The notes beneath the pieces were generated by a model, which did no database searches, was not told the DNA's origin, and saw only the letters and a program-made list of their open reading frames with translations. From the NCBI RefSeq assembly GCF_001186125.1, contig NW_014040537.1, positions 118,971-170,623 on the forward strand: DNA of 51,653 bases. The letters run 5' to 3'. Position 1 is the first letter of the stretch. The number at the start of each line of letters is the position of its first letter. Below are positions 93-24,739 of this stretch, piece after piece. Both the position numbers and the translations under genes were made by a program. Source of the stretch: Sphaeroforma arctica JP610. Its lineage: Eukaryota.

Positions 93-95
<3 letters not shown>

Positions 96-129
96 ACTAG
101 TAGTGTTTCAACAATCAAGAGAACTGAAG

Positions 130-1670: not shown

Positions 1671-1955
1671 ATGTATGTGATGTTATAATGTATGAGCATG
1701 TGGTATGGCTCTCATAGCCGTTGTAGTGGTTCGGGAAAAATCGATGGGAAGAAGTAGTCAGTAAATTCCCGTTTGAAGATTGGACCAAGTGAGTCGACAA
1801 TGGAGGATATGCGCTGAGTCAATTCGGGCCGGTGCTGACAAAACACTGATACTATCGAATGTGCTATGTATTTGCTTGCTGACCTACTAAGTAGCGTACC
1901 CACCTCTGTTGTACGGATCGTGTCTGCGCCGTGTAGTGTCGAAATACCGAGTAAG

Positions 1956-3120: not shown

Positions 3121-3484
3121 CACAAAATAAGGCTGATGCAGAAGCAATCTTACCATCGAATAAGCGACCCGACGTGGTTAAGATCTATCCACAGACATCA
3201 TACATTCCCAGCTTTAAACAGCATGGAATGTACGTACCTCCAAAAGGCATTAAGAAACGTCCTATCCACCATCGGGGACCACAAGGACCAAAGCCCAAAC
3301 ATAATAGAGTAACCGAGTAACTTATAACGTCTAAGTATACTTTGTCTAAGAGAGTATAACATAAGCATTGAGGCCGTTATATGATCGAAACCCGTTTCTT
3401 TTCTTTTCGCTTGTACAATTCATGTGAGCTTTTTGAGTCTATGTGCTAATACCACATATACGCCAACATTGTAATTTTCAAGCT

Positions 3485-3505
3485 GAGAGGGGGGAGGGGG
3501 GGGGG
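3485..3505 (+). other. Polypurine tract of element A
   Basis: 21-nt pure purine, G-rich run ending 3 nt before the LTR TG. Confidence 0.85.
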
Positions 3506-3508
3506 CTA

Positions 3509-4412
3509 TGTAAAAATAGCGGGTTCCTAATAGTAGTTGCACAGTTAACGTATATTAAATCGTATTAACGTATTAGCGTTTATACTTATAATACTGAAAT
3601 GCGTTTAACGTATTGGACATGAACAAGAATTGAGATATTCAAGATTCTGAACATGTGATAGTACTCAGTAAAGTATGGGCTTCTACTGTGGATAATTAGG
3701 TGGTTTTCCAAATATAGATTGGTTTTTTCCACTGAAATTAGAATTGTACATAATATAGGAATGATACAAATCTGACACCTGAAAATGACACTTTGGGGAT
3801 CTCTAATCAACGGGAGTACCATGAGAGAGGGTCTCAGGCATGAAATGGTTGTTGGTACAAACCTATGGTATAATTCGATAATATTCTCAGAGCAAGATAA
3901 TCCACTGAGAAAAGGACAGGATCAGAGTTGTTAGAATTTTGGACAACCTGGTTTTGATTCCTCCTAGCCAGCCAACTAGATGTGCCCGTCTATGCCTTAA
4001 ATTGGATGGGGAGCTAGGTACCAAGTGATGGAGTATATGTGCAGATATATACTTCACCAGCTTGGTGTTTTGATTTTCTTTTTCTTTTCTTAAGTTGGAC
4101 TTAGATATATTTTATTGCTTATTTTGAGTAGATAATTGGTTCGAGGCGTGAAATGTAAAATATGCGTCCAATGAAATGATATCTAGTCTTAGAAACTAAA
4201 ACATAAATAAATTTAGACCGAAGTAGTGAGTGATTAGAGCGGAGCATATAGACAATAGTCTCAGTCTAGAATCCCCTAATCTTTTGCTCACTACCAAGGG
4301 CTGAAGCTAAACTTATTTTTAACATTTTATATTTTAACGTTTAAACGTATTGTCTTATTAACGTAAACGTCTTGATATCGTATAGTCAGCCTAGAGGAGA
4401 CCGACTTTTACA
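3509..4412 (+). mobile_element. 3' LTR of element A (904 bp)
   Basis: TGTAAAA...TTTTACA terminal inverted repeat, directly after the polypurine tract. Non-LTR element sequence begins immediately after it. Confidence 0.8.
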
Positions 4413-5191
4413 CTGTCGTGTCTGGCTTTGTCTCAGTTTGAGGTGGGCGGCTTACCCATAACTAGTTGGTAGTAGTATTGGCGCCGGACTATTGCCGCGA
4501 TCTCCTTGTTGGACCAGCGTTTTGTTGAGTTCTTCCTGGTGTCGTCACAGCGTTGGCGGAGGGCTACATGGTCGGGTGTACGCCCGCCCGTGGTTTTGTG
4601 TACAGTTTTCAGGTGAGCATAAATACTGTACGGGAAGCGCAGTGATGGTTTGTCGTGGGCCCAGGCCGGTTGCGACAGAGGGGTGAGTGGATTTGTGCTG
4701 GCCATTGGGTCGAGTTGTATTCTCAGGCAACCTCCGAGGTACCGCGAATGGTCGCGCGGGCAGCAGGCCACAAAAGTGGAGTAAGTTTGTTTGATGTTTG
4801 GGAAACCGATGGTATTTAGTGCCCGTGATGATAGCTGCTGCTTGGATGAGTGCTGAGTTAAAGCGCTCGAACAGGGGGTCCAATGCATCCTTCCATATAG
4901 GCGGAGCCCAGGCAATGATGTTCAGGCCATATGTAGCCGTGGATATGATAAATGTTTTGAACAGCACCAGTCGGTTGCGGGAGTGTCACCAGCTGAAGCC
5001 ATGGAAGCCATAAGCGCGGAAAGAGGCTACCCTCAGAGACAATGCTGCAACCAGGGATTTCATATGTTTGGTGGGATTTATTCCTGGTATTCCGTGAGAG
5101 AGTGTGAACCCCAGATATTTGGAGTGTTTCGGTTTGGCATGTGTGGACGCCATCTTCAGGGGGAGGTAACGTGTGTTCCAAGGTGCGTCTG

Positions 5192-5791
5192 TGTAAAGTT
5201 CGATGGATATTTCTATGTTTTAAACTATGTTATATAAACTAAGATACAATTTAAGTCAGTTAGGATTTAGCAGTGGTAGCTTGTGTAAGAACGATCGGGA
5301 CTGCCTTTTGGAAAGAGCCTTATTATCCTCGATCCCACAGGACGTACCTCTAGCTGATCTTTGTTAAATAATTTTCACTAGAAGTACTAAGTGTTCATGA
5401 CCACATGTCTAATTTGTAAATATACATAAGAACGTAAGTCAGGTTAATATATTAACTAATATAGATAAAGTTCCATCTGAAGAAAAGTTAAAAAAAGAAA
5501 AAGACTTATTGAATTTTGGAGATTGGCGGGAAGACCAAAATCTGTAAGTAGTAGTTCAGAAATTATAAAATTTAGTTTATGATATCCTACATCTACTATC
5601 GTCTCAAATAGATCCAAGTAAATGAGTCATACCAAATACTCAGGCTATTAGAGCCATCAAGGTGAATTTAGAACACTTTGGAAATATTGGAAAAAGAACT
5701 TGTATTAAATTTTTTTAAATACAAATAAAAACCAATGTGTTATCTCATTTGATCTTGATATTTTAGACTGACCGGAGGCCATATTTCTACA
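5192..5791. mobile_element. Solo LTR (family E, 600 bp) inserted in the non-LTR RT
   Basis: TGTAAAG...TTCTACA ends with a 4-bp TSD TCTG at 5188-5191 and 5792-5795. Confidence 0.9.
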
Positions 5792-6842
5792 TCTGCAAGC
5801 GTCGGCGTGAATACGGAGGGTTGGCGCCGCGTGCCACAAATCGGTAGATCGTACTCGGGGTTTAATGACACCCTGTTCGAGGCCAGATTTGCCTCCCCAC
5901 ACATCAATGTCATCTAAGAAGGGCTGGATCGGAACCGATTGAGGGGCTTGGATCCGTGTGTCATCGACAAATAAATAAAAGCGGAGAAGCTTGGGCCAAA
6001 ATTGTGCTAACGTGACAGCTAAGGAATCCATGTAGATAATAAAGAGCTGGGGGCCGACGTTTGATCCTTGTAGGATGTTATTCGTTCTATGGAATAGAGG
6101 CGAGAGCGTACCACGGTATATCACTCGGGTAGGGACCCTCTCAAATAGCGCGCGGAGGCAGTTGATCCAGTTTTCGGGCATTCCAGCGTGGCGCAGGAGT
6201 ACCCATAGGCGTGGGAGAGCAACCTTGTCGTATGCCTTAGTAATGTCCAGACAGACGTCGTTCCACTCCTCTTCTGACTGTGTCTCAGATTCCATGGCGA
6301 CAAGTGCTTGGGTATGACAGGAGTACCGTGATTTGAAGCCAGCTTGGGTAGCATGGGTAGCAGAGCCGGGGTGGCTCGTGATCAGATTAAAAAAGCACTT
6401 TTCAAAGATGCGTCTGACTATTTGCGTAAGCGTGATGGGGCGGAAGTCAGCGCGGGAGATGATATCTGCATTGGCTTTCTTTGGGTGCGCTGTCAGGAGG
6501 CTGCAAGGAAGGGCTGCAGGGAAGGTACCCGCCTTCAGTAGCTCAGTGAATGCTTCGGCAAGGAGTATAATCAGTGGGCTATTGGCGTCGGGGCGTCCTA
6601 ATGTCCGGCGTTCGGTGGAGCGCTCCACTGCGGCCTTCAGGATGAGGATGTGGATCTCGTTGGGGCCAGGCCCCTTATTGGGATAGCGTAGTATAGCCTC
6701 CATTACATCGTCGGGGCGTATGGTGGAAGTGACATAGGGAGAGGGTTCGGTATCCGGTGGAACCACGTACGGGTTTGTAGAGTTGAATAGGTTCTCAAAG
6801 TAGCCAGCGAGGGTGGTGCCTGTGTCATCGGTACCCGGTATG

Positions 6843-6989
6843 TGTAGAAAATCGGCCTCCGGTCAGTCTAAATATCNNNNNNNNNNNNNNNNNNNNCTTA
6901 GACAAGCTACCACTGCTAAATCCTAACTGACTAAATTGTATTTTAGTTTAATATAGTTTGAAACCTAGTAATTTCCATCGAAGTTTACA
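6843..6989. mobile_element. Second family-E LTR insertion in opposite orientation, spanning an assembly gap
   Basis: Both ends match the reverse complement of 5192-5791 (TGTAGAAA..GGCCTCCGGTCAGTCTAAA and CATCGAAGTTTACA). 4-bp TSD TATG at 6839-6842 and 6990-6993. Confidence 0.9.
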
Positions 6990-8055
6990 TATGCAGGGTT
7001 GGCGCGGAGACCGTCGTTGGTACGCAATATCTTTGAACATTTGAGCATTGCCTTGGGCGATCAGACGTGGGCGGAACGAGTGGTTTGGCAGCCGCTGAAC
7101 CCAGGGTCTGTTTACGTCATAGTAGAACCATCCGAAGACTTATGGATTAGCAGCATAGCGCCAGATGCGGTCGAGGATCCGTAGTAGCCCTTCAGCTGGT
7201 CCGTGCAAAGTGAGATACGACCGTAGTAGGTTCTGATGAGCCCGGAATTCGGCTTGGAATAGTCGCGCGCGGGATTTGTTGCTTAGGTGATACAGTCGAT
7301 GGCGATATCGGTTATATCCATGGGAGGGGAGGCGTTGGTCCGGCATTGTTGGCATTGTTGTCATTTGTTGGGGCCGATGGATTTGATTCGTGGGAAGTAT
7401 CTGGAGATCGAGTCCAAAGGTGTGATCACCAAAGATACCGTAGTCCGTCAGCTTATAAGTCTGGAGGGAGGCGGGGGTGGTAGGCGATGATATACATGTT
7501 CTGTACCAGTTGAGCCGCCAGCATAGAGGTGGTCCAAGTGCCACGTATTACGCAGGGTAGTCTCAATCGTTTTCATACATAGTCCGTGATTTGTAGATGC
7601 GTGGCCATACTTCCGGGCTTTGAAGTTGAAATCTCCCCACACGACATCTGGTTCGAAATCGCCAATCCCGGGGGGATTCATGTATCGCCTGACGTCTTCT
7701 TCAGTAAGTGATTTGAGTGGAAGGTAGAACACGGCCATATGAACGCCAAAACACACAAAGAACACCGCCTACGGTGAAGAGTGTACAAGTTGAAAATTCG
7801 ATGGGTTGTGTTTGGAAAAGATGCCAATACCCCAGTGTGACGGGTGTAAGATATTGTGCTGTGCAGTGTGATGTAGAATATGGTAGTATGTGTTCGAGCG
7901 TATATGATTAAGAAATGTGGTGTTATGCCAGGTTTCAACCACACACATAACATCAACCTGATTTAAAATCGATATAACGTTCAAACACTTATCGGTATGT
8001 GCTGTGTTGTCCATGTTGAGTCATTGTGGGTTGAAGAACGTCATCCTCATTGGTC

Positions 8056-9356
8056 CTAACATTGTCCATCGTCGGTCAATACTACTGGGCTCTCTTCTTT
8101 AACGATGTCAGCCATTTCTATATCCTTGCCTGTCGTCGAAGAGTCAGTCGTGGAAAGTTGAGGCTGCGTATTGGTAAACATCGTGTCGGATGGTTGTGTC
8201 GGGAAAACTGTTGGTATATGAAGTCGTCCGGGTTCCGCACGCGCTGGTTCTTTAGCTTTTGCTGGAATTCGGGTTAGGTGAGAAGAGGTTTGCATCATGT
8301 TTTACTTGGTAAGCCTTCTGGAGACGGTCCGCGGTAGATCGGAGGATGTCTGTGTTAGTGGGAGTTGACAAGGGGGCTCAGTAGTACATCCATGCTGCGG
8401 GCAAGAATTTTTGGCGCTCGTTCATGTGTGCAACGGGCCTCCCGCTTGGTGCGAAGATAGTGGATTAAGGCTGCTTTCGTAGCGTCGGGTTGTTGTTCGG
8501 AACGGGGGTCGATGTTTTTATCAAGTTGCCATTTCCACGTAAGTGCTGCATGTCGTTTCACCTTGGCAACAGCGTCGCTAGGAACACAAAGGCGTACGAA
8601 ACTGGTGGAGCTTCTGCGGCGATTTGGTTGAGATACCGATTTAGACGGGAGATACCAGAGAAAGTGATGGCGATTGAGGACTGGTTGGGCATGCCAATAT
8701 TTTTCAAATACTGATTGGGATGGGGGCTTGCCGTTAGGGAAAATTGCTCGGAATAATAGCCATATCGGAGTTATGTCATCCATTCCATGAAGAGTTTTGT
8801 CCGGCATCGGGCGGCCCACCACTTTCGTCAAAAGGTGTTCGGGTACTGGCAGCTGCGGTAGGGACTGAGAAACTGGTGGGGTCGGGCGTGTTTTAGGGCT
8901 CGGGTTTTCAGGTTTGTCCACTTTTGAGCGGTAGCTGGGAGGCTCACTGCTGCTATTGGGCGCCTGTGACCGCGGTCTTTTTGCTGGCGGAGCAAGCGGG
9001 TTTGTGGAGCCAAATCGGAAAGTGTCGGGTGTGTCTTCATCTATAGGTGCACGGGTTTGGGATTTAAGGTCCCGGAGTTTGGATTCGAGGTTGTTTACTT
9101 TTGCACATAGGTTAGAAAGCATTTGATGCATGGTTGATTTCCATTGGTCATCAGTCAAAGGCTCCTTGGAGATGGACCCATTATTGTTCGGGGTTGGTAG
9201 AGCCGGTCCCAAAATTTGGTTGAGATTTGCCTGTAGAGTATTGACCTGGGCAGAGAGGTCTGTGATAGATTTTTGTAAGTCCAATTTCTATTGGTCATTG
9301 GGCAAGAAGTCCTTGGGGACGAACGCCTCAGTTGAGGATTCGGCCTGGCCCGACAT
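8056..9356 (-). pseudogene. ORF1 of the non-LTR element (coiled-coil-like N-terminus, Pro-rich linker)
   Basis: 309-aa ORF 8355-9284 extends to ATG 9356 through one TAG that is TGG in the second copy. 8056-8298 may be a frameshifted tail. Confidence 0.75.
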
Positions 9357-9584
9357 TTTTAGCTGCTGTGGGACTGTGGGTCCCCAGGCTTTCTACTGGA
9401 TTTTATTTTGTTTTGTTTGAAAATCCAAATTTCAAGTCTGGTATTTATGTGACTTTTTGGTTACTCGTGGGATCTATCACCTCGGATGGACGGCTTGTGG
9501 TCGACTATCGAGGATAACCGAGTCTCTTCGGTTTCAGGCCGGAGCATTGGTCCTTTTTACGAGTCCAATTAGCTCATCACACTG

Positions 9585-10545
9585 ACCAAGTTAGGATATT
9601 CAGGGGCTTTAGTCCCATCAAGGTTACAGATAAAATACCCGTTGCCCTCCCTGCATACTACTTTGTATGGTCCGCCATATGGTGATGTCATCTTGTTCAT
9701 TTTACCTTCATAGCAGACCATGACAATGTCCCCTTCCTGGAAGTGTATACACTTCTTTTGGTATTCTAGGTCATATGCTGAGCGTATCTTCCCGTGATAT
9801 TGCGCAGCATTAGAATATAGTTGGTTCTTCCCATGATACTGTTGTACTGGGTGCGATCACTGATGTGTTGTAGTCTGTGAATAGATTCTGTCTGCGACCG
9901 AATTACACATTAAATCTCGGTGACTTATGCCTTCTTGAAGTGCGCAGATTGTGGCCCATCTGTACGAAGGAAAGTAGGGAACGCCAGGTACCTGGGTTTT
10001 GTTCAACAAACTTCCGTAACAGTGGTATGAAATCTCTGTGTGATTTTTTGTTCGCATCTAAGACTTTAGGTTGGTAAGGGCCAGCGACTAGATGTTGTGT
10101 CGGCGCTTGTTCGATGACTCTTGCAAGTATGTTTTTAACATATTGTCAGTGTGTGTCTTGATCGGTCTGTATGATTTATGGGAACCAATGTTGGCACATG
10201 ATTAATACCAGCATACGTGCTACAGTAGCCGTTGATATGTCCAACATTGGTCTGAGTATGACATATGATGAGTGCACATCTAGCCATACTAACACATATA
10301 TGTGTCCTTTGTTTAAGTTTAGTAGTGGTCAAATGGTGTCCACTTGGACAAAATGCGGCTGTGATTGATTGTAAAGGATGAAATTCCTTTTGTGTATCGT
10401 ATTTTTGAGACATGATACACATCCTTCGATATACCTATTTACATATTGCTAAATTTGTGGACAATCGTGTCCATCTGCTTGCGACTTGTTTACCGTTTCC
10501 TCAGGGGTGTAATGTCCTATGTTGTGGTCTTGCTCGATGATGCTG
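9585..10545 (-). pseudogene. DDE integrase of element C
   Basis: Manual translation: DHNIGH...GCVSC (HHCC); VQVDT; YVLVWLDVHSSYVILRP; IIQTDQ; PYQPK; FQEGDIV..PYGGPYKV (GPY/F). Several stops and frameshifts. Confidence 0.85.
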
Positions 10546-10661
10546 ACACGTGTTTCGTATTCTATTTTATGTGATACATCTCCATAATTAACTGTTTGGG
10601 ATGCTGAAACATGTATGGCAGGTTGTTCCCGCATTGAGTCAAAGTTTGAAGGCTTCACTTC

Positions 10662-11054
10662 TATCTTTGCGACTAATGTGACACCCCATGGAGTCTTGCC
10701 AAAGGCTTTCGTGCCTCCTTTGAATAACGTATTGTTTGTGCATTCCACTAGCATCGGGTCTTCTTCTAGTAAAGACAAGAACTTCGGAAATCACGTTGCA
10801 TTGGGGTAGTATGGTACCCATCTCGTGGTGCTGGTTGTCTCTTCAATGACTTTGCCAAGGGAATCAGGTATGAGTTTCCATGGTGGATTTGCCCATGTAT
10901 TCACTTCCTGCGCCCATTTTTGTAAGATTGCATTATGTTCTTTTGTGTAGTATTTATCAGTGTGTGCATTGTGTGCCGATGCAAACACATCTACTGTGAA
11001 TTTCCCAAATAGTCTTTCAGCTTCCTTGTAGAATCTGGGGTGTAACATCCAGTC
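10662..11054 (-). pseudogene. DNA N6-adenine methyltransferase domain (phage Dam / DIRS MT type) in element C pol
   Basis: DWMLHP..FGKFTVDVFASAHNA..KYYT..NAILQKW..WANPPWKLI..VPYY..KTPW. One in-frame TGA at 10791-10793. Confidence 0.85.
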
Positions 11055-11179
11055 AATAGCTGATATGGTTATGGGCATGTTTGTTTCCAAGGTGGTGTAC
11101 TCTTGGCTGTTGTGTGTTTTTTTATTTGCGTCTTGTAATACCTCAGACTTTTATTATCAAATGTGTCTTCGTGTAGACG

Positions 11180-13700
11180 CAACAACAATCTGCCATCTGA
11201 TTGTCCTGGTCTGGGACATGTATGATGGAGAAGTGGTGGTGGTATATTTCTGCTATTTATTTGGCTAGCATTGGGTGTAACGTCTGTTGGCTGTTTATTT
11301 GCGTAAGCGCTTTATGATCTGTCCTTAGCGTCATATCCTTTCCTTTGGTGTATTCAGATAAATGTTCCGGGCTATATATCAGTACTAGTAGCGTTTTTAG
11401 TGTTTGTTCCATAACGTTGTTGTGCTAAATTTAAGCGTTTGAAGAAGTAGAGAATATCTCTCCTGAATCTATCAATGACTTGAAATAAACATACTCTCTG
11501 ACCCGCAGGTCACCAGTGTAAAACGGACTACCCAATTTCAAAACCCCACAGACCCCACCAATAAGTCACATACTAGACCTGGAATGTAGAATTTATTTTT
11601 GTTTTTAAACAAAAAATCCAGTTGGGACCCACAGCCACCATTGGTGGGCCAGGACAAACCCCCAACTAAGACGTTCGTCACCAAGGACTCCTTGCCCAAT
11701 GACCAATGGAAATTGGACTTACAAATATCTATCACATACCTCTCTGCCCAGGTCAATACTCTACAGGCCAATCTCAACCAAATGTCAGGACCGGCTCTAC
11801 CAAACCCGAACAATGATGGGCCCATTTCCAAGAAGCCTCTAGCTGACGACCAATGGAAATTAACCATGCATCGTGTCAAGGTGAACAACCTCGAATCCGA
11901 ACTCCGGGACCCAAAATACCAAACTTGGGCACCTCTAAATGAAGGCACACCCCACACCATCCGAATCGGCTCCACAAGCCCGCCTGCCCCGCCAGCAAAA
12001 AGACCGCGGCCGAAGGCACCCAATAGCAGCAGTGAGCCTCCCAGCTACTGCTCAAAAGTGGACAACCCCGCAAACCCGAGCCCCAAAAAACGTTCGACCA
12101 CACCAGCTTCTCAACCCCTACTGCAGCTGCCAGTACCCACACACCTTTTGGCAGAAGTGATGGGCTACCCGATGCCGGACAAAACTCTCCACGAAATGGA
12201 TGACGTAACTCCGGTATGGCTCTTCTTTCGGGCAATTTTTCCTAATGGCAAGCCTCCATACCAATAAGAAATTGAAAATTACTGGCACGCCCAACCGTAC
12301 CTCAATCGTGATCACTTCCTTTGGTATCTCCCGTCTAAACCGATTTCTTAACTAAATCGCCACATCGTCCCGGGAGTTCCACCAGTTTCGTCCGCCTTTG
12401 TGTTCCTAGTGACGCTGTTGCCCAGGTGAAACAACATGCAACACTTACGTAGAAATGACAGTTTGATAAAACTATCGACCCACGCTTCAAACACTGTCCC
12501 GACTCTACGAAAGAAGCTTTAATCCACTATCTTCATACCAAGCGGGAAGCTCGCTGCACACATGAACGAGCGCCAAATGTTCTTGCCCGCAGCATGGATG
12601 CTCTATTGAACCCCCTTGTCAACTCCACTTGTAACTTATCTCTTTTGAAATAAATAATATTATCCCTATGCCGTAGTTACTAGCGTCGTTCATGATTTGG
12701 AACGGTACCCCATCTACAGGGTATGCTAGTGTCGCCGAACATGCGATAGCTTCTTTGAGTTCTTCCCACTCCTTTTTCAGTTCCGGTGTTCATATGTTTC
12801 ATTTTTCCTTTCATTTGGTTCCGGAAGTGTTTAGTTGTGTGGACAAAGTGGACATGGTCGCGCATATAACTCGTGAGTCCCACCGCTTTGTGCAGATCTC
12901 GTTTTGTTATGGGTAATGGCCAGTCCATTATTATTTTATGTTTTTTAGTATCCGCTTTGAGCCCTTGTGTGGTGACTTTTACACCTATAATGTTGACCAC
13001 TTTGACCGCGAAGGCATATTTGTTGTAATTAAGTCTGAAGTTTGCTCCATTCAACCGTTTGAATACTTTTCGAACTGTCTTGCGGTGTTTTCTGTAAGAC
13101 TTGCAATGACTGTGTCATCGACATACACTTGTACTCATTTGATGTCTATAGGTAAGTTTGCCATGACTCTCTCGAGTTGTGCTATGAGTTGAGTGTAGGC
13201 CAAATGGTTCTGACTTGAATGAGTATTGCGCTCCTCTCCACGAGAACGTGAAGAAGTGTTGGCTTGCTTCGTCTACTAAGAAGTAGTGGAGCCCCCCATG
13301 AGATCTAGCTTGGAGAAGAATAGTGCACCTTGTATGTTGTGCAATACTTCCTTTTTTTTTGGTAGCACGAAATTATCACGTTCATATTGTTATTTGATCT
13401 CACGCAAGTCTAAACATGTACTTACTTTTTTGAGGAGACCTGTTTGGTCATGTTCAACCGTTGATAACAGCGGTAAATTTACCGTTGTTCGTATAGTTCG
13501 TTTGTATTTGTGGCCGTCTGTAAATCACCTCTTCACATTTTCATCCGTTTGTGGGGTATACTTGTGTGGTACGAAGTTTACATTGGCGTGCCTCGTTTGT
13601 CTTATTACTTTCATTTGTGGGTACTGTGACTGTAGAACCTGGTAGGTTACAATGTTGTGTTGGTATCTAAGAGGTCTGCAAACCTTCTTGCTCATGCTCT
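11180..13700 (-). pseudogene. RT and RNase H of element C, interrupted by an insertion at about 11497-12664
   Basis: FSKLDL, FTFSW, PFGL, YVDD (13114-13125), DWPLP, NDASNYGIG then (after the insert) VCLFQ, TDHKAL, HVP..NQMAD. Confidence 0.85.
11497..12664 (+). mobile_element. Fragment of the same non-LTR family (5' UTR plus ORF1 only) fused to about 35 bp of a family-D LTR end
   Basis: 11599-12267 translation is highly similar to 8355-9284. Homology stops at 12629, where TGTAAC... matching the 1670 terminus begins. Confidence 0.85.
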
Positions 13701-13719
13701 GGGTTTTCCTCATGTGGAT

Positions 13720-14163
13720 TATGTAATGTATCCCACTTCGCATCTGTTGGTATAAGTGGATTTATTAATCCTGCTATGTATATACCTATGTATGGAAGTA
13801 TGTATATACCTAGAACTATTGGTGCCTTCTTGTCAGGTAGGTCCAACACTTCAAACCCCTGAGAGGTTTTCCTTCCTTGGGTTGACCCTGTTCTTCGTAT
13901 TCTAGCGTCTATTTGTGCTAGTTGTATGTGACCCGGCTGTGGTCTGACTGATAGATATGGTTCAGTTACTGTATTTTGTCCATACATGTGCGTTGTGCAC
14001 CGAAGTCTACTAGGGCGTTGTATGTGTTGCCATTGATTTGTATGTCAATGTGTAATTTTTGGTCTCGTGGTGCGGGAAGTAAGGATAAAGGTTGGTAATT
14101 TATATCATCTGCATTTAGTATCATCATTTCTTCATCTGTATTTACATTTAGCCTGTCAGCCAT
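13720..14163 (-). pseudogene. Aspartic protease of element C
   Basis: IQINGNTYNALVDFGAQRT and downstream PIVLG. Confidence 0.75.
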
Positions 14164-14196
14164 GTCAATTATGTTTGCTTCCGCCCACTAGTTGTT

Positions 14197-15300
14197 TCAG
14201 GACTCATCGCTATTTGTTATCTGTTCTACCTTCCCGGAGGTAATTGGTAGTCTAGCTACATGCACATCGTTCTGGACACGCTCCTCCACCTTCTTGTTCT
14301 GATTTGATGCCTTCACAGGACATTGGCTAAATCGATGTGCGGCTGGTGACACCTTACAATAGGAACATGCACGTATTGTCGCTCCTTTCTTCTCATGGGG
14401 TTGTCCTATTGGGTTGGGTTTGTGATTTAGTGGTAGCATCCTGAGGCTGGCTGTGCGTGGCCGCGTGATAATTATATCTCTTGCACTCTCGGTGCATACA
14501 ATCTGCCTGCACCTTGGCTGCTGCTCTTATGATTGCTTAAGTAAGAGAGTGGAACACGGTATGTTTCATATCTGATAAGTGCCCGTCACTTCCATCGGGC
14601 AGTTTGTCTGCTTTAATGATGGCGTCCACTTTCTCTTGCTGTCCAATACACATGAGTGCCTGGTAGCTCGCTACCTTGAGTATTTGCTTGTGTATGGGCT
14701 TTTTGTCCGTGTTTTGGTAGCACTCATCTAACACTTACATCACTCTATGCAACCGCTCTGTGCGTACCTCTACGTTCAGTGCCTTGTTCTCCATGTCATA
14801 GAAACATTTCTAACAGAAAGTCTACTGAATAGTGTCTGAGTTTGTCAATAATAACTCTATTGAATTGCTCAGGATCTTTGTAGTGCTTTGTGATCTGTGT
14901 TTCTGAATCACATACCTCATTGAGTACCCCCTTGGTCTTCTCAGTTGCGTCAGTGGAATCTAATAGATATCTCACTAGCGCTGGATACTAACATAGTGGC
15001 ATAGATTTGGTTACGAACAGGTGTCTATATTGCGTAGTAAACTCTATAGTCTTCACAATTTTCATTTTGAAGTAGCTATCTCTTGGTAACTTCGCAAATT
15101 ATGAGGTCTTTAGTAGTTTCGATGGTGCAGGTTCACTAACCCTATCACCTAAGCGTGAACACATAAGCTCTATCTTGTTAATGTACTGACTGGTTAGAAT
15201 TATATCATCTTCCTCATCGTCACCGCACTCATTGATAGCTTGATCGTATCTCTTTATAGTTCTGCGTCTAATAATGGTATGCAACGTTCTGGTTACTGGT
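14197..15300 (-). pseudogene. gag of element C
   Basis: Fragmented ORFs between the leader and the protease. C-terminal knuckle CSYCKVSPAAHRFSQC. Confidence 0.6.
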
Positions 15301-15404
15301 CATGAATGCCTACTCTCATTTTGTGTAGACTCGCAATGTTAACTGGTGCAGTTCGTTCTAATTTAGCTACAAACCTACTAACTAGAACATAGTTGCCTTG
15401 ACAA

Positions 15405-16462
15405 CTGATTTTGCTATTTCTAGACGCATGGCTGATGCCTGTATGGGCATGCAACCCACCCGGTGATGATTGGCTTGAGCCACTGCCTTGGTTTGTCCTC
15501 CTTGCTGGGCTGTCCCCCCCACCGTCCGTGGCAGCGTCACCCTCTTCACTATCTTACATGTCTGTTCTGGTTCCCGTTGGCATCTTGTGATGTCGGTGTT
15601 GGTGTGCGTGTATTATAAGTTATTAGTAAAGACTTGTGCTAGGTTTGCTGCGAATGAGTGCCTTACTCCCTATTGTCTTTACTAGTTAATTGTATGAAAA
15701 TAAATAAAAATTGAATTTATCTCACTTAGCTTTGTCGTGGTCACGCCTTGCTGCACTCCCAGGGGAAGTGTTTACCGTCCTGTGTTATGCAGTGGCTTGT
15801 TGCGTTCCTTCCTGTGATTGTAAGGTGTATATGGTGTTTGTTAGTTCATCTTATTCAGTCACGCGTGGACTTCCTTGTGCTTATTTTGTCATATGAGAAA
15901 TTATTTCTCACTTGATCTTAACTTGATGTTGGTCCTAGTGACGATGATTTTGTCTATTTCTAGACATATGGCTGATGCCTGTATGGGCATGCAACCCACC
16001 CGGTGTTGATTGGCTTGAGCCACTGCCTTGGTTTGTCCTCCTTGCTGGGCTGTCCCCCGCACCGTCCGTGGCAGCGTCACCCCCTTCACTATCGTACATG
16101 CCTGCTCTGGTTGCCGTTGGCATCTTGAGATGTCTGTGTTGGTGTGCGTGTATTATAGGTTATTAGTAAAGACTTGTGCTATGTTTGCTGCGAATGAGCT
16201 CTTTACTCTGTATGAAAATAAATTAAAATTGAATTTATCTCACTTAGTTTTGTCGTGTTCACGCTTTGCTGCACTCCCAGGGGAAGCGCTTACCGTCCTG
16301 TGTTATGCGGTGGCTTGTTGCGTTCCTTCCTGTGATTGTGAAGTGTATATGGTGTTTGTTAGTTCAGCTTATTCAGTCACTCGTGGACTTACTTGTGCTT
16401 ATTTTGTCATATGAGGAATTATTTTCTCACTTGATCTTAACTTGATGTTGGTCCTAGTGACG
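15405..16462. repeat. Tandem duplication of a ~520-540 bp unit in the element C leader
   Basis: 15405-15942 and 15945-16462 are near-identical; both end GGTCCTAGTGACG. Confidence 0.95.
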
Positions 16463-17086
16463 TCACCGAGGAAGTTCAGTCATATTGACGTCACCTATGA
16501 TGTTCGGTCTCATTGACAGCACCTCTAGTGTATCGTACTTCTTGTGTTTTTTAGTATGCCGTAAACTTTTATATACCGAGCTCTCCTATTTCAGTATGTG
16601 TTTGTCGGTTTGTGCCCTTTTGTACCTGCTACTATCAATATGGTCTTCGTTTTGCTGTTGTTATGTACCTCCTGGTCACTGTGTTTTAATCACACTGAAT
16701 GTTTTACATGTTTTGTACATGAATTCGTCACACCCGTAATTCAACTTGATACGTGTGTGTGTTATTGTGTGATGTCCTCAACTTTAATGTGCGGACTTCG
16801 TTGCACCCTTGATGTATGTCTTAAATCAAGTTGTAAACTTGTGCTGTTCGTCTTGATGTTTGCTGTCAAACTCTGTTGATGCCCATCCTGTGTTGAACAG
16901 TGAGGGTGTGAGGTTGATGCATGTTCTGTTAATTTGTGCATAACTGATTTGAATGTCAATTTTTGGACTGTCAATGGTTATTTGTGTGCCCCCTCACCTT
17001 GTTGATTTGTTCGTCAAATTTGTGTTCAATTACGTAGAGAAGGCTTATTTTTACGGTGGATGTCATATTTTTATATAGTATCGTCT

Positions 17087-17100
17087 TGGTTCGCTTACCA
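17087..17100 (-). other. Primer-binding site of element C
   Basis: Minus strand reads ...AGGTCA-tat-TGGTAAGCGAACC; TGG is complementary to a tRNA CCA end. tRNA identity not determined. Confidence 0.7.
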
Positions 17101-17103
17101 ATA

Positions 17104-17488
17104 TGACCTAGTCTTTTGTGCCACTCTTCGACTGTGCTCGTTGTGAGTTGCGCGGGTGCGTACTGGTCACTGTATAGTATGGAGAGTAGCAGAAAGATAC
17201 GACCAAAGGAAACAATAGACGTCTTCTCAAGTACAATTGTCTCAGCTAGGAATAGTCAAATGCAGGTTAAGATGTCACCAACGCAAATATTAGTATAATT
17301 AAGTCCATAGATTCCCACCAAACTTTCATTTATCGCAAGTAGACTTGACAGACGACCCCATGTCTACTCTAAAAGTATAGTGGTAGTGGGTTCTGATTTC
17401 ACGGGACATATCAGTTCTAATACTTCTGTTCTATACTTGGTGTGGTGGGGCCCATATACAATCTTCATGAATTTCAGAACGGAGGTCA
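17104..17488 (-). mobile_element. 5' LTR of element C (385 bp)
   Basis: TGACCT...AGGTCA perfect 6-bp terminal inverted repeat adjacent to the PBS. Confidence 0.7.
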
Positions 17489-17589
17489 GAGGAGTGCCGA
17501 GGAGACAGGAATAATATGGTCGTTTAACTTAGTTAGTACATAGTTTCTTATGTACATTAACAATATAATAAAGTATATAGTTAACAAAG

Positions 17590-19025
17590 GCGATAGATGC
17601 ATGGTATAGACGCAGGAGATAAATGCATGCGATAGGCAAAAGGCACATGTACCACATCAATAATATAATAAAGTCCATATAATCAAAAACTACAAGTATA
17701 GACACGTGCAAAAAAAAAACTCATGTATAAGAACCATGCGATAGATGCATGCGAAAAACGCAAAATAAAATAAAATGAAGACGAACGAAAGACATGCAAA
17801 AGACTCGTGTATAAAACGAATACGATAGATGCATGCGAATGACGCATGTATAGGAAACATACGATAGATGCATGCGATAGTGTAATAAGCCGGGCCTCCA
17901 CACTAGACTCTATGTATAAACGTACTCTTAAGCAGTACGCAAATTTTAAACGTACTCTTAATAGTACGAGGCACTTAAGTTTCCTAAATGTACTCTTAAT
18001 AGTACGAGGAACTTAAGTGTCCTAAAATGGTTTTTAATGCTTTTATTAATTAAACTTTTCCATTTAACATATTTGGATGAGGCCATTAAAAGGCCTCAGT
18101 AAAATACCAAACCTAAAAGAGTTGATCTAGTTCTATTAATAGAGCTTTATTTACTTTGCAATTTTATTTATATCTGAATACTCCGGTAGCGAGATGGCTC
18201 AACCGAATATAGGTTTCTAGGGACTATTAACGTTACCTAGTTGATCCTCCAATAAGCCAACCATATGTGCCAGTCTGATGAAGGCTAAGTCGGTAATTCT
18301 TGATAGTGGCAAGTTATTGGTTAAGACAATAACTAAGGACGTCAAGAGTAAAATATTTCTTCGTCTAAAGATAGGATTTTAAGAGTCTCTCGGATTCGCC
18401 CCAGAATAGAGCGACAACGAAACACTAAATAAAATCCCTTCGGCGGATACAGTACTGAGAGGATTATATATAGGCAATATCTCAGCCTCACAATCCCTCA
18501 GAGTATTGCTATTTTCACGAGGCAAATCTAAATTTATTGAACGTCTCATTTCGTTTATTTATATCGATATTTACACGATATTTAGAATTTACCTACACGT
18601 TTATTTATTCTAAAGCATTAGTATCGCTTTTATTAGACCGAATCTTACAATAGTCGCATGCGAAAGATGCATGTATAAAACGCATGCGATAGCCGCATGC
18701 GAAATAGGCAGATAAGATGCATACGATAGATGCATGCAAATTACGCGAAAATAAGATTTAGGTGAAAGACGCATAGATAGATGTATACGATAAATGCATG
18801 CAAAAGGCACAAAAATAGGATGCAGGCGAAAGACGCATGCGATAGTCACATACGAAAGACGTATGTACAAGACGCATACTGTATAAGACGCATACGATGG
18901 ATGCATGTTATGGTCGCATTTGAAAGAGACGCATGTGTACAATGCATGCAAAAGCTGTATGCAACCGATGCATACAAAAGACACGAAAAATAAGATGTAG
19001 GCAAAAAACGCATGCAATAGTCGCA
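17590..19025. repeat. Degenerate minisatellite (core GATAGATGCATGCGA / AAGACGCAT), split by LTR insertions; resumes at 25576-25670
   Basis: Many imperfect copies at 17590-17880, 18650-19025 and 25576-25670. Confidence 0.8.
17881..18649 (+). mobile_element. Solo LTR of family B (769 bp)
   Basis: TGTAA...TTACA ends, 4-bp TSD ATAG, homologous to 19308-20565. Confidence 0.92.
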
Positions 19026-19026
19026 T

Positions 19027-19307
19027 ATTTAACGGTTTTTATTAATTAAATACCTTTTCCATTTTACATATCAGATATTTGGACAAGGCCATTAAGAGGC
19101 CCCAGTAAAATACCAAACGTAAGATTTGGTCTAGTTCTATTAATAGAATTATATTTACTTTCTAAATCTATTTATATCTGAATACTTCGGTAGCGAGATG
19201 GCCCAACCGAACATAGGTTTCTAAGGACTATTAGTGTTGCTTAGTTTATCCTCCGTTCAGCCAACCAGATGTGCCAGTCTGATGAAGGCTAAGTCGGTAA
19301 TTCTGGA
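19027..19307 (+). mobile_element. Internal fragment of a family-B LTR
   Basis: Matches about 19421-19699 and the corresponding part of 17881-18649. Confidence 0.9.
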
Positions 19308-20075
19308 TGTAATAGCCGGGCCTCCACATTAGACTCTATGTTATAAACGTACTCTTAAGCAGTACGTAAACTATAAACGTACTCCTAATAGTACGAGGAA
19401 CTTAAGTTTCCTAAATGGGTTTTTAACGGTTTTATTAATTGATACCTTTTCCATTTTACATATCAGATATTTGGACAAGGCCATTAAAAGGCCTCAGTAA
19501 AATACCAAACATAAGATTTGGGTTAGTTCTATTAATAGAACTATATTTACTTTCCAAATCTATTTATATCTGAATACTTCGGTAGCGAGATGACTCAACC
19601 GAATATAGGTTTTTAGGGACTATTAGCGTTACCTAGTTTAACATCCGTTCAGCCAACCAGATGTGCCAGTCTGAAGGAGGCTAAGTAGGTAATTCTTGAT
19701 AAGTGGCAAGTTGCAATAACTATGGACACCAGGAGTTTTTTTCTTTTTTTTCCTTTCTTTTTTTAATTTAATTTAATTTAATTAAATTTTTTATTTTAAA
19801 GATAGGATTTTATGAGTCTCTCGGATTCGCCCCAACGAAACATACCATAGTTTCTAATAGAGCGACAACGAAACACTAGATAAAAATCCCTTCGGCGAAA
19901 ACAGTACTGAGAGGATTATATATAGGCAATGTCTCAGCCTCACAATCCCTCAGAGTATTGCTGTTGCACGAGGCATACCTAACTTTACCAAAAGACTCAT
20001 TTCGTTTATTTTTTTTTCGAATTCCACGATACTTAGACTTAACCTAGGCGTTTAATTACTCCAAGGCGTTAGTAT

Positions 20076-20536
20076 TGTTAGAGTACAATGTAGTAGACTT
20101 CAAATAAAGTGCAAATGTATTTAAAGTAAGGTGCATTCGAATGAATTTATTTATGATCTCACCCTCAGCTATATACTGATGGTGTTTGTACTAATGTTCA
20201 ACCACTTGGGTTGGCCAGGGTAAAAACTCATATGATCAGTATGAGAAACCTTATGCAGAACACTTTAGCACTCGGATATATTTTCTAGAAATATATATAT
20301 CATATTCTCTGTTACTACACTCAGCGAGATCTCGGACCTCGGCTCTCGGCTAGCCGGTGGCCCGTATCCTATAAATAGAATAATCTGAGAAGAAGTCTCA
20401 AATTACTCTTACGTTCTCTCGGACTGACCCACCTATACTTATACTAATTTGAGAACAAGTCCCAAATTACTCTTGGGCTGACGACGTAAAACGTTATTAA
20501 CGTATATAGAAATACGTCTACTACTGTAGTCTCTCA
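20076..20536. mobile_element. Solo LTR (family F, 461 bp) nested in the element B 5' LTR
   Basis: TGTTAGAG...CTCTCA ends with extended imperfect inverted repeats (GTAGTAGAC/GTCTACTAC). 5-bp TSD AGTAT. The host LTR is continuous once it is removed. Confidence 0.85.
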
Positions 20537-20692
20537 AGTATCGCCTTGATAGACCGAATCTTACACATTTTAAAGTTAGCAATGGTAATAACATTTAGAC
20601 TACTTGAACGTAAAGGTAGATAACTACCACGAAATTTTTCCTAAACACAGTCATTCCTTAAGAGAAAAAGACTGAAGTCATAAGTTAAGATT

Positions 20693-22865
20693 ATGACAAA
20701 GAAAGACAATACACCTGCAAAGAGACGCAAGGCTGAACGTAAGAAGATGGAGAGAGAATCCGCTAGCGCTGCAGCAGCTACTGCTGCTGCAGAAGCAACC
20801 GCCGCTGCTGCCGATGCGTTTAACCGCACCGTAGCTGAAGCTCTTGTCTCCGACAATAATAGTCAACAGGACAATGCTTCGGATAAGGATGTAGCCATTC
20901 CGATTAAGGAGACTACTCCTACAGACAGAGCCCGAGGGCCAACTATTGCTTCAACTTCAAAGCTTGCATTTACGAAGCCAGGAAGTGAAACAAGGGACAC
21001 GTCTCAAGACGCCCCAACCAATTCTTCTGACGAAACTCAGAAAGAAAAGTCCCCAATTATAGGGGACAGAGACGAATCTCAGAAGGTACCTATTACCGAA
21101 CCAGAAGAGAAGGTAAGCTCAAGTGGCAACCCCGAATCTACGTCCGAGACCACTGAAATAAGGCGTATAAAGTAAGTTAATTACTGAAAACACTGATCTT
21201 AAAAATCAGTTTGCCATCCTTATAAAAGACATGACTGTTGAACAGGTAGATCGATTGTATAGATCAGGAAAACATGCACAACACTTACGCGAGCATGTTT
21301 CTCCGGGCATTACTGAAGCCCTACAGAAGTGGACAGAACGTCAACATCGAGCGCCACACCTGAGCCAGATGTGCTCAGCGTATCTATACCTTACGAGGTA
21401 CTACCACCAGAACTTGCGGCTAATTACTCACCTGTTCTGACACCCGTCCGTGAGTCACCCGTCCTTGAGGGTATTATAGACCCAGAGGCAGGTAAAAATA
21501 CTCCGCCACCTTTACCCAATTGGGATGCCAATCGTCGGAAACCCGTTAAGACTGGGTATGTTATCCAGACGCATGAATCACCGAAGATTATAATACCAAC
21601 TACTATCCGAGGGACAGAGCACGGAAAGGCCTCGACCATGGACTTTACAAGGAGTAATAAACATTCCCGTAAATGTGTTAACGATGTCGAATTTAATCGC
21701 TTCGATCGCACAGCAATACGCCAGCCAGCAGAGAATTTTTACTCTGACGAGGTGACCGAACTTAATAAACCGGTCGACGAGCACCGAGCTGATGACGTAT
21801 CATATTTTGCTAACATGATCGCGATCAAGCAGAAGTGCATCGATCAGCTACCTTAGGCCCAACGTGGGCAAGAGCACAGGGATAGCCAGAAGTACAAGGG
21901 ACAGATCAGTCGACTTATGTCAAACTGGGATGCCAACAGCAAGCAGGTCGAGTTTATAAACAACCATGACCTCGACACGCTAACCCGTACGGTTAATGCG
22001 TTTACGGTCATGCTGGAGACAAATGATTGCTCCCCAACAATGAATTTCAACTTTAATGCAGTCATTTGACCCTACAGGAACAAGTTACTTGATCCTGCAG
22101 CGACACCAGCGTGAGCTAGACACTTGTCGTGACTGGCCAGCTGTGTGCTGGTTTGTTACGTCCTTATTAAGCAAGGACATGCGCAGTCCAGGACTAAGTT
22201 CCATCTTGACTGAACCATTTGAGAATACTCCTATTCAGAGTTACATTCTGAAACTTGATGCTGATCTAAAACGCCCAGATATAACAAAGGACAAGACGCA
22301 GCGATGGTACGAGCTCCTGGTTATGCATGTATTCTGTAAAAACATAGGGAACAATGACCGTGAAAGTCTACACACCGAGTTTCGACGTAAATACGCTACT
22401 GAGGCTCGAGACAAGGGACATAAAACAAAGTATCATCTATCCCGACTTACGTGGGAACAGTTTTATGACACTGTATTCACTCTTTTCCCCGCACACCGAG
22501 TAACCTCGAAGGGAAAGGCGGTAAATAAGAAACCGCGCGAGCTCACTGATCAAGGATACCTCTCACGCCAGACGTCAGATGATAAACCTCATCAGACGCG
22601 TCCTAACCAGACACGCAATTACACACGACCCAATAAACGGGCACGTGCAGAGGCGAAAGACAAGGAAGCTCCATTTAAGGAGATTAAAAAATGTGCCGAC
22701 GCACTGTGCGGGTATGACATGTACCAAATGACCCCTAACGGTTATTGGAATGGCAGACATGCACCCACCTGTACACACTTTCTTACTAAGTGTGACAAGT
22801 GTGAGAAGACCAATGTCTATCACACCAAGTCGTGCGACAAAAATCCCGACATTAAGTTGGAGTGA
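20693..22865 (+). pseudogene. gag of element B
   Basis: Collinear ORF fragments 20693-21175, 21329-21856 and 22056-22865. C-terminal CDKCEKTNVYHTKSC knuckle. Confidence 0.75.
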
Positions 22866-24734
22866 CGGTACTACAAGGTACAATCGTTAAAAAGAAAATA
22901 CAACGACCTTTTAGACGAGCGTGTAATAATACCTGTATATTGCAATGGAAATAAAGTCCTTGCATTGATTGATCCTGGTTCAGAAATTTCATGTATATCC
23001 GACCACTTTGCAATAATGAAAGACATTGATAGGCGCACTCAAACTACTCACCTAATCTTAGCAGATGACAAAACTTCTAAGTGTGATACCATGATCACAG
23101 ATGTTAAAATCTCCCAGGCCTATGATAGAAATATCACTACCCAAGCTGTGATAGATAAGATGTCACAGAAGTACGACTTAATAGTCGAAATGAGTGACTT
23201 ACTCACCCTAGGTATAACCGTAACTGGTTTACCAAATAACATAGATCCATTAAAGGATCAATCAGGCGATAATTGTCTGACACCATATAAGCCCCCGTCA
23301 GACACAGTCAAGGCATTAATACCTGAGTTTGCGAACAAAATTATGGATCTGGTTCTAGTAAATAAAAAGATAAAGATCACAGATTGGGAAAAATTCCGTT
23401 TTAACGACGGATATGTCAGCCTTGACTTAACCAAGGTAGAATTTACTAAGCTCAAACACCCTTCAAGAAACTATGTATCTTGGAGACACGAAGCTGTAGT
23501 CAAATAACAAGTTGAGAAATGGTTATCCGACGGGGTAATTGAAATCAATTACCAACAAACGCCAGTTAACGTAGCATTATTGGCAGTTGATCAACACAAA
23601 TCTGACGGAACATTTAAAAAAGTCAGAATATGTCTAGATATGAGTCCAATAAATAAGTTATTGCCGACTCATAGTTTCCATTTCCCTCGTATAAACGAGT
23701 TACTGAGACGAATGGAAGGTGCTACGGTGTTTACATCTAAAGAACTAACACAGGGGTATCATCAAATGCAAATTTATAAACCCCATCGTAGGTACTTTAG
23801 TTTTACCTGGAAAGGTAAACAATACAGGTTCAGAGGTGCACCTTTTGGGTTGTACTCCTTACCAGCATTCTTCCAACAAGTAATAGAGTAAATATTTGCA
23901 GACATGCCTAACGTGCAAGTCTATATAGATGACATAGTCATCTGTTCTAAGACTAAGGGCAAACATGCCGCATTAGTCAGGCGAGTCCTTCAGAGACTCA
24001 ACGAACAAAACTTCAAGATTACCGAGCAGTAATGACACTTCGCCATGAGCGAAATACAGCTCTTAGGCTACCGTATATCTGGGGAAGGTATTAAAATCGA
24101 CCACGGTAAGGTGGAACACCTATTAGATTGGCAAACACCAACTACAGGAAGAGATGTGAACAGCATGTATGGGTTTATAAACTTCTTTTCAGATGGAGTA
24201 CCACACTTGGCTGATTATCTTAAACCCTTTGGACACTTAAGATATCATAAAGGCAAACTAGGAGACTTGTGGACTGAAGAGTGTTATGACGCATTTAAAG
24301 CGCTCAAGCACGCAGTCCAACAAGCCCCTGTTGTACAAGGACCAGTCAATGGCGTGCCTTTTGAAGTAGCAATGGACGCATCAGACTTAGCACTCAGAGG
24401 TGGACTATACCAGTTTATATATAATAAACCTAGGTATATACAATTCTTTAGCCGAGCAATGAATGCATCACAGTCGAATTATCCAACTGTGAAGCAAGAG
24501 CTACTAGCCATAGTAGCAGCTTTAACACACTTCTGCGATTACTTATACGGAACCGCTTCTACGTTGATGTGTGATCAGAAGTCCCTTCAATATATGAAAG
24601 AAATGAAGCCAGACTCTCAATTACTAAGCCGATGGCATGATACACTATCAAAGTTTCATTTTGGTATCAAACACCTACAGGGATACAATCACGCTTTGTA
24701 CCGGACTCCAATAAACCCGTACGTGAGTTACTAG
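22866..24734 (+). pseudogene. pol of element B: protease, RT, RNase H
   Basis: ALIDPGS; VRICLD; GYHQ; APFGL; YIDD; LLGY; MDASD; ELLAIV; CDQKSL. Several stops. Confidence 0.92.
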
Positions 24735-24739
24735 CCACT

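Follow-up and report, generated by a model that had tools for sequence, protein, structure and literature searches.

The window, a stretch of 51,653 nucleotides from Sphaeroforma arctica JP610, carries on its minus strand a dead copy of a Ty3/Gypsy LTR retrotransposon (element A), which we assign with high confidence to the ichthyosporean DAM-LTR lineage. A Pfam scan and alignment to the relatives P0001 and P0002 gave the Pol order protease, reverse transcriptase (RT), RNase H, Dam-like domain and integrase. The initial annotation had read this order behind an LTR, a primer-binding site (PBS) and gag; gag and all the Pol domains, including the YVDD motif of the RT, were located, but the LTR and the PBS were not.

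All features of element A are on the minus strand. The decayed gag (14197–15583, starting at 15583) was assigned by position and has a cysteine-rich, knuckle-like motif near 14367, and Pfam gave no match on the single piece of it that was scanned. The leader and the start of gag are duplicated in tandem at 15406–16462, as two units of ~540 nt that are 90% alike. The aspartic protease and linker (13604–14175) are frameshifted, with a gag-asp_proteas match (E 5e-4), the protease motif at 14013 and 49–57% identity to P0001 and P0002. The RT and connection (12794–13605) are interrupted by stops and frameshifts, have YVDD at 13125 and are 58–64% identical to the same two relatives. RNase H is split into a first part at 12652–12789 (RT_RNaseH_2, 33.2 bits) and a frameshifted second part at 11144–11491 (RT_RNaseH, 27.5 bits), whose end, HVP..NQMAD, lies at 11220–11188.

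The Dam-like N6-adenine methyltransferase domain follows at 10650–11084, and the integrase zinc finger (HHCC, 10526–10410) and catalytic core together occupy 9860–10530. The core matched rve with E 9e-7 and 29.5 bits, slightly short of the 32.6 cut-off, and its third acidic residue is replaced near 10049. As initially annotated, the methyltransferase and the zinc finger share one reading frame broken by single stops: the frame runs with the core from 11150 to 9860 and contains six stops, one in the Dam-like domain (10793) and five in the integrase (10451, 10331, 10178, 10148 and 9905). RNase H is out of frame with the Dam-like domain in element A and in frame with it in the intact relatives. 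The GPY/F region (GPYK at 9673) and the first part of a chromodomain-like segment occupy 9464–9823, with 48% identity to residues 1100–1227 of P0001. The element had been thought to end at 9585, but the pol matches continue to 9464 and resume at 1618–1553 with the second part of the chromodomain-like segment (59% to P0001 residues 1232–1253, E 8e-4). A weaker match at 1282–1196 (48% to P0002 residues 1259–1287, E 0.11) is the likely basic C-terminal tail, with which pol would continue to ~1196.

Two sets of insertions interrupt pol. Nested insertions of ~7.8 kb on the minus strand (1625–9455, boundaries approximate) lie within the chromodomain-like segment and comprise a LINE, with ORF1 at 8355–9287 and an RT at 5705–6862 (RVT_1, 65.1 bits), and a plus-strand Ty3 integrase piece at 2003–3300 (rve, 42.2 bits) that sits inside the LINE. 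RNase H is split by a plus-strand, internally deleted insert of 1169 nt (11496–12664), which consists of the 5' end with ORF1 and the 3' tail of a LINE like the neighbouring one (83% over 999 nt at 8361–9351 and 87% over 45 nt at 1627–1671). This insert is missing from other copies of the family, as contigs from all four of the four sequencing runs skip it.

No LTR pair for element A was found in a self-comparison of the whole window or in a sensitive comparison of 15301–18100 with 1–9600 (best E 0.08). The TG..CA repeat at 17881–18649 (plus strand, TGTAA...TTACA) repeats, in direct orientation, the LTRs of the neighbouring plus-strand element; it is 74% identical to 19308–20075, has no partner downstream of element A and is a separate LTR of that neighbour's family. 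The PBS-like TGG near 17099 was rejected, as it lies inside a Copia GAG-pre-integrase-like frame (16971–17255; E 6e-5, below cut-off).

The neighbour, element B, is a second Dam-carrying Ty3/Gypsy copy (19308–25575, plus strand), with gag-like frames, protease, RT, RNase H and Dam, and with integrase absent. Its 5' LTR (19308–20565) contains an insert of ~460 nt, its 3' LTR remnant lies at 25360–25575, and the TG..CA direct repeats are 94.8% identical over 194 nt. The Dam-like domain of element B is at 24710–25150. In both the RT and the Dam trees, element B is sister to the integrase-bearing P0106.

P0001 and P0002, two intact relatives, are proteins of 1288 aa with protease, RT, RNase H, Dam and integrase in one frame, and P0003 and P0111 (Abeoforma whisleri, according to EukProt) also have all domains in the same order in single intact ORFs. 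Pfam Dam was above cut-off in P0001, P0002 and P0003, and among solved structures the sequence of P0001 matched Ty3-G Gag-Pol best (E 2e-65). The Dam-like domain of element A is 71% identical to that of P0001 and 70–72% identical to those of P0001 and P0002. Contigs from other genomic copies span the junctions between RNase H and Dam (X1 11005–11324, 41 other letters) and between Dam and the zinc finger (X1 10473–10795, 53 other letters). Of 68 pattern matches to P0001 in a metagenome scan, none was confirmed.

In the RT tree (162 rows), P0001–P0003 and element B fell within Gypsy in a clade of 13 (support 0.988) that also contains P0111 and is nested among 91 integrase-bearing Gypsy rows. Element A was placed through these relatives, its own RT being left out. 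A separate clade (support 0.998) was formed by 44 of the 46 RT-RNase H-Dam proteins without integrase, rows that were labelled DIRS-like by architecture and not by name. In the Dam tree (152 rows), both domains of the window were in a clade of 22 (support 0.94) with P0111 and with none of the 44 DIRS-like rows; the ichthyosporean grouping in both trees rests on one named member, P0111. The host gene RPL17 had named matches at 63–71% identity spread over animals, fungi and plants, with no near relative among them. These results bear out a Gypsy lineage with its own Dam-like domain of DIRS type. DIRS1-like tyrosine-recombinase retrotransposons have the same domain directly after RNase H, whereas element A has a protease and a DDE integrase and its relatives have RTs outside the DIRS-like clade, and a DIRS identity was rejected. 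No tyrosine recombinase family matched among the 25 window frames scanned. That a one-off DIRS fragment entered a Gypsy copy, or that nesting created a false domain order, might be suspected at a heavily nested locus in which both RNase H and the tail of the integrase are interrupted by pieces of LINEs, but this explanation is virtually impossible: it is refuted by the four intact single ORFs, and the bridging contigs and the second Dam-carrying copy in the window also stand against it. None of three contrary results (no Dam-profile match, copies lacking the domain, or a DIRS-type RT beside a separately nested integrase) was seen, because the Dam profiles match, other copies carry the domain, and the relatives have a Gypsy RT with the integrase in the same ORF.

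The initial annotation had taken the architecture as possibly undescribed. A preprint of 22 May 2026 (Fernandez-Moreno et al., bioRxiv 10.64898/2026.05.21.726589) describes both the architecture and the ichthyosporean DAM-LTR lineage, and novelty is therefore not supported. In the accessible portions of PMC11673190 and PMC12477816, no Gypsy element with a Dam-like domain is described. Like the published elements, as compared through the main text of the preprint, element A belongs to Ty3/Gypsy, combines a PF05869 Dam domain with an integrase and keeps NPP, and its relatives group in RT and Dam with the Abeoforma whisleri element; unlike them, it is dead and fragmented, and 10 of 11 relatives tested have a divergent chromodomain-like tail. 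The proposal that DAM-LTRs may let a transposon write an active-chromatin mark on itself has already appeared as a preprint, this lineage included. What the locus contributes is a further, dead copy and two refinements open to testing, namely a likely divergent chromodomain in a lineage reported to have none and a methyltransferase fold nearest to that of an RNA-cap methyltransferase.

The methyltransferase assignment itself held. Against Pfam PF05869, the Dam-like domain of element A scored 51.2 bits (E 1.5e-13; cut-off 28.1), and it also matched phrog_111 (E 5e-14) and, below the 97.05 cut-off, TIGR01712 (44.7 bits, E 1e-11). VDVFAS lies at 10994–10977 and an intact NPPW at 10889–10878. These phage N6-adenine methyltransferase families were the top sequence-profile matches; about half of the profile is covered, and, unlike the phage enzymes, the domain forms part of a Pol polyprotein. 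Searching solved structures with a profile built from 51 Dam rows returned no relative by sequence. The predicted model of the domain had a methyltransferase fold (pLDDT 93.5), and its nearest solved fold was PCIF1/CAPAM (PDB 6IRX, 6IRV, 6IRW; Foldseek E 1.7e-4, TM 0.67). With VIA, PCIF1 had Z 10.6 (rmsd 2.7, 136 aligned), 1.5 above the following row, compared to Z 7.7 for E. coli Dam (rmsd 2.9, 108 aligned) and Z 7.6 for T4 Dam (rmsd 2.8, 106 aligned). However, PCIF1 is a cellular enzyme with ~480 modelled residues, versus ~145 in the Dam-like domain, the identity is 13–18%, and neither Pfam nor a solved-structure profile search gave a sequence match to the PCIF1 family or chain.

As for function, we tentatively favour the reading that the Dam-like domain puts N6-methyladenine (6mA) on the element's own reverse-transcription products, which we regard as close to evenly balanced. 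As part of Pol, the domain would be packaged in the particle beside the RT and integrase and its target could be either the cDNA or the RNA-DNA hybrid. Once the element has integrated, host AMT1 would keep up the mark and promote transcription, as in the model of the preprint, and the chromodomain-like tail may guide the integrase to chromatin. The initial annotation had likewise proposed a marking of the cDNA or the insertion that favours expression. Taken jointly, the identity of element A and a cDNA-marking domain are quite probably the best explanation of the locus. In Abeoforma and Sphaeroforma, DAM-LTRs have more 6mA-marked copies and higher expression than other LTRs (bioRxiv 10.64898/2026.05.21.726589). 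This enrichment is a correlation that could also arise if transcribed copies are methylated by host AMT1.

A rather unlikely alternative is that the domain has lost all or nearly all catalytic activity and is kept for binding nucleic acid or SAM, or to space RNase H from integrase. Such a loss would fit the heterologous assay of the preprint, in which Dam domains of transposable elements did not raise 6mA in Dam-deficient E. coli, and the judgement of Iyer et al. 2016, in the part of PMC4738411 available, that the DIRS copies are likely inactive. The NPP motif is altered to NIPW in element B and also differs in 2 of the 26 LTR-type relatives, and conservation is lower in the Dam-like domain (80%) than in RT, RNase H and the integrase core (92–95%). 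On the other hand, NPP with an aromatic residue is retained in 24 of the 26 LTR-type rows of the Dam tree alignment (as NPPW in 21), the D-x-F-A motif is present in most, and the predicted fold is complete and confident. The favoured reading also draws on conservation: the domain is 80% identical between P0001 and P0002 and 58% identical between P0001 and P0003, compared with 39% and 29% in the linker behind it.

The domain may instead be PCIF1/CAPAM-like and methylate adenosine in the element's RNA, at the cap-adjacent A or in packaged genomic RNA, and not in DNA; 6mA on genomic copies would then stem from host AMT1 on well-transcribed copies. We consider this unlikely. PCIF1 tops both structure searches, the rows ranking after it are the RNA adenine methyltransferases DIMT1, KsgA and Erm, and the domain of DIRS elements was called PCIF1-related and put in the PCIF1 clade by Iyer et al. 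2016 (PMC4738411, same part). RNA substrates would also account for the negative E. coli DNA assay, and PCIF1, CAPAM and m6Am are absent from the main text of the preprint. Nevertheless, the sequence matches are to phage Dam families and not to PCIF1, PCIF1 may be simply the nearest fold available when no solved relative is found by sequence, and a common fold at such low identity does not prove function. That the nearest fold is that of an RNA-cap methyltransferase makes a case for including RNA substrates in an enzyme assay, in which the intact P0001, P0002 and P0003 could serve directly as natural proteins.

At the C-terminal end of Pol, a divergent chromodomain-like segment closes the protein in 10 of the 11 relatives tested; these tails scored above all 200 shuffles with a profile built from 22 chromodomains outside the clade, and Atlas assigned Chromo to 28 of 30 matches. 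With Pfam, the tails fall below the cut-off or give no score; no Chromo match was found in the three window pieces scanned, nor in P0002, P0106, P0111, P0113, P0120 and P0125. A single-sequence model of the segment was of middling confidence (pLDDT 68.7). In a Foldseek search nothing matched at E 0.001 (best E 0.16, with mostly chromodomains in the top rows), and VIA-align was uninformative, with a best Z of 3.7 to unrelated folds and 3.4 to chromodomains. By eye, the aligned tails of P0001 and P0002 have the central tryptophan, and the first and third cage aromatics are absent. Judging from sequence, the Pol of the intact relatives likely ends in a divergent chromodomain. The preprint describes the ichthyosporean lineage as lacking chromodomains, which we read as a probable limit of detection that leaves the lineage membership of these elements unaffected. 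The position of the segment behind GPY/F resembles that in group II chromodomain chromoviruses; those chromodomains were described from plant elements, as far as the accessible text of PMC3350952 goes.

A bolder combination, and a quite unlikely one, is that the retrotransposon Dam is a PCIF1-like RNA adenosine methyltransferase marking the element's own transcript, paired in ichthyosporean DAM-LTRs with an overlooked, cage-less chromodomain. If so, the elements would carry an RNA-marking enzyme together with a chromatin reader, and not only a DNA methylase; the negative DNA assay would then make sense, and the account in the preprint would need revision.

Element A, a Ty3/Gypsy copy on the minus strand, encodes protease, RT, RNase H, Dam, an integrase zinc finger and core, and a GPY/F region, as revealed by a Pfam scan of the three-frame minus-strand translation with X placed at stops. 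Its Dam-like domain (10650-11084) matched PF05869 with 51.2 bits (Pfam cut-off 28.1), and two further profiles, NCBIfam TIGR01712 (E 1e-11, under the TIGR01712 cut-off) and phrog_111 (E 5e-14), agreed. On the minus strand, the YVDD motif of RT (13125) is followed by the VDVFAS (10994) and NPPW (10889) motifs of Dam and by GPYK of the GPY/F region (9673), consistent with the initial annotation, which placed Dam between RNase H and integrase of a Gypsy element. Dam and integrase share a frame, which was said to be broken by single stops only, and six such stops were counted. The copy is dead.

The protease-RT-RNase H-Dam-integrase architecture is a trait of the family. A search for longer proteins yielded two matches among 226 candidates, the intact relatives P0001 and P0002 (each 1288 aa), which are 70–72% identical to the window Dam domain and in which one frame spans all domains from protease through RT, RNase H, and Dam to integrase. 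An RT-region search returned 105 proteins, four of them with Dam by precomputed Pfam annotation, and from the 3912 proteins of a profile search at E 0.001, the best 150 were taken and typed with local profiles. In the sequencing runs, contigs of diverged copies spanned both the RNase H-Dam and the Dam-zinc finger joins. At the stop inside Dam, 4358 of 4489 depth units in run X1 (19 contigs) differed from the window; in the remaining three runs the differing share was roughly half or higher. Together with a second Dam-carrying copy, element B, these results contradict a one-off insertion of the domain.

Two integrase-bearing relatives, P0123 and P0147, carry Dam ahead of RT rather than after RNase H, and therefore the domain position varies among LTR elements with a Dam domain (DAM-LTRs). 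A circularly permuted contig of ~325 nt, with seven gap letters, was ~85% like the Dam segment (window 10671-10985). It looped back 315 on itself in four of five runs (X1, X9, X12, X16), and a contig in X2 had the same gaps. Its depth greatly exceeded that of locus-identical contigs in X1 (5490 vs ~60–80) and X9 (2782 vs 34–41), and was just 8.3 vs ~3 in X16. The contig probably represents tandemly arrayed sequence that arose from the Dam segment; depth gives no copy number.

Among PDB sequences, P0001 matched Ty3-G Gag-Pol best (E 2e-65). The RT tree (FastTree, matches <120 residues excluded) comprised 162 rows: 91 proteins with integrase and without Dam, 19 with both, 46 with Dam and without integrase, four others, element B, and, as the outgroup, the LINE of the window. 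Element A, whose RT is frameshifted, was represented by its relatives. P0001, P0002, P0003, and element B fell into a clade of 13 (0.988) inside Gypsy, apart from a separate clade (0.998) of 44 of the 46 Dam proteins without integrase, which were labelled DIRS-like by architecture only. EukProt assigns P0111, which lies in the clade of 13, to Abeoforma whisleri; of ten proteins looked up, no other had a cluster with a species name. In the Dam tree (152 rows), both window domains grouped with P0111 in a clade of 22 (0.94) without DIRS-like rows, the LTR-type label of P0110 and P0114 being drawn from the RT tree. The RT tree bore out, through the relatives of element A, the proposed Gypsy affinity. 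The host gene RPL17 did not settle the lineage of the host, as its named matches in animals, fungi, and plants were all 63–71% identical and none was close.

The Gypsy element with a Dam domain is real and already described, contrary to the initial suspicion of a new architecture. Fernandez-Moreno et al. (bioRxiv 10.64898/2026.05.21.726589) first reported Dam in non-DIRS LTR elements, which by their account received it from DIRS in four or more transfers; one lineage of such elements is ichthyosporean and occurs in Pirum, Abeoforma, and Sphaeroforma. Modest refinements of this picture are a likely divergent chromodomain and a likeness to PCIF1.

The main text of that preprint describes the ichthyosporean lineage as being without a chromodomain. 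Our results indicate that a divergent chromodomain is quite probably present after the integrase. Pfam Chromo matched P0001, P0003, P0109, P0112, and P0116 under the cut-off and gave no match in six others. With a profile of 22 chromodomains taken from elements not belonging to the clade (the training boundaries came from an earlier profile including clade members), 10 of 11 post-integrase tails, including that of Abeoforma P0111, scored above all 200 of their shuffles (8.3–24.6 bits). The P0106 tail failed the shuffle test, and the P0113 tail matched over 20 residues only. Atlas had Chromo in 28 of 30 matches (0.91, 173 shared features). P0001 and P0002 were 88% identical in the chromodomain-like segment and 48% in the tail. 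Structure searches with this segment were not decisive.

The Dam domain of P0001 was modelled with confidence from a 51-row alignment (pLDDT 93.5). We tentatively take as its most likely function that it would self-mark the cDNA or hybrid with 6mA; the preprint reports DAM-LTR copies enriched for 6mA and expression, and proposes that reverse-transcription intermediates are marked, with upkeep by AMT1 (bioRxiv 10.64898/2026.05.21.726589). A dead binding module is a less likely rival, in favour of which the E. coli assay was negative (bioRxiv 10.64898/2026.05.21.726589), and a passage of Iyer et al. 2016 (PMC4738411) links the DIRS domain to PCIF1 and judges it likely inactive. NPPW is retained in 21 of 26 LTR-type rows and the domain is more conserved than the linker behind it, a pattern expected if selection acts on a domain that either works or binds. 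Action on an RNA substrate appears improbable; PCIF1 ranked first for the P0001 model in Foldseek (E 1.7e-4) and VIA-align (Z 10.6, rmsd 2.7, 136 aligned), followed by RNA adenine methyltransferases, E. coli Dam (Z 7.7), and T4 Dam (Z 7.6), but this fold hint is weak because no phage-family member was found among solved structures. The preprint's main text contains no mention of PCIF1, and Iyer et al. was the only literature found linking PCIF1, DIRS, and retrotransposons.

The pol of element A extends beyond 9585, its initially annotated end: P0001 residues 1100–1227 correspond to window 9823-9464 and residues 1232–1253 to 1618-1553, the two parts being separated by ~7.8 kb of nested elements; the P0002 tail weakly matched 1282-1196. 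RNase H is interrupted by 1169 nt that resemble, in reverse orientation, the 5' portion of the adjacent LINE (83% identity) and terminate in that LINE's tail. This insert is absent from other copies, since contigs of all four runs join 11495 directly to 12665. One LINE family struck element A twice, once as a long copy interrupting the integrase tail (1625-9455, minus strand) and once as an internally deleted one in RNase H (11496-12664, plus strand), both finishing with the same AT-rich tail and then CCCTAT. Nested in the LINE is a Ty3 integrase piece (2003-3500, plus strand), 23–27% identical to the element A integrase, with a purine-rich tract near 3485 and then a likely LTR start downstream.

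Comparisons within the window found no LTR pair for element A. The TG..CA repeat at 17881-18649 falls in the family of element B, the neighbour on the plus strand, and the PBS-like stretch near 17099 sits within a Copia-like frame; a Copia-type GAG-pre-integrase fragment was matched at 16971-17255 (minus strand; E 6e-5, under cut-off). Element B (19308-25575, plus strand) has a Dam domain 42% identical to that of P0001, with NIPW instead of NPPW. It lacks an integrase and its 3' LTR is cut; over 194 nt the two LTRs agree at 94.8%. An integrase deletion is likely because its sister P0106 has integrase. ATGCAT-rich degenerate repeats adjoin the LTRs of this family (17560-17880, 18650-19030, 25576-25670).

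Elsewhere in the window, a 529-aa frame (30902-32491, minus strand) had no Pfam match and gives the impression of a hAT-type transposase, and an 801-aa frame (36820-39225, plus strand) encodes a fungal-like cell-surface enzyme with an Agd3-type deacetylase (161 bits) and CBM87 (35 bits), although the host is probably no fungus. A host-gene block spans 41426-51349, with genes for an RRM protein (41426-41929), a ROK-family kinase (43273-44640), RPL17 (47338-47850), and BUD31 (50843-51349).
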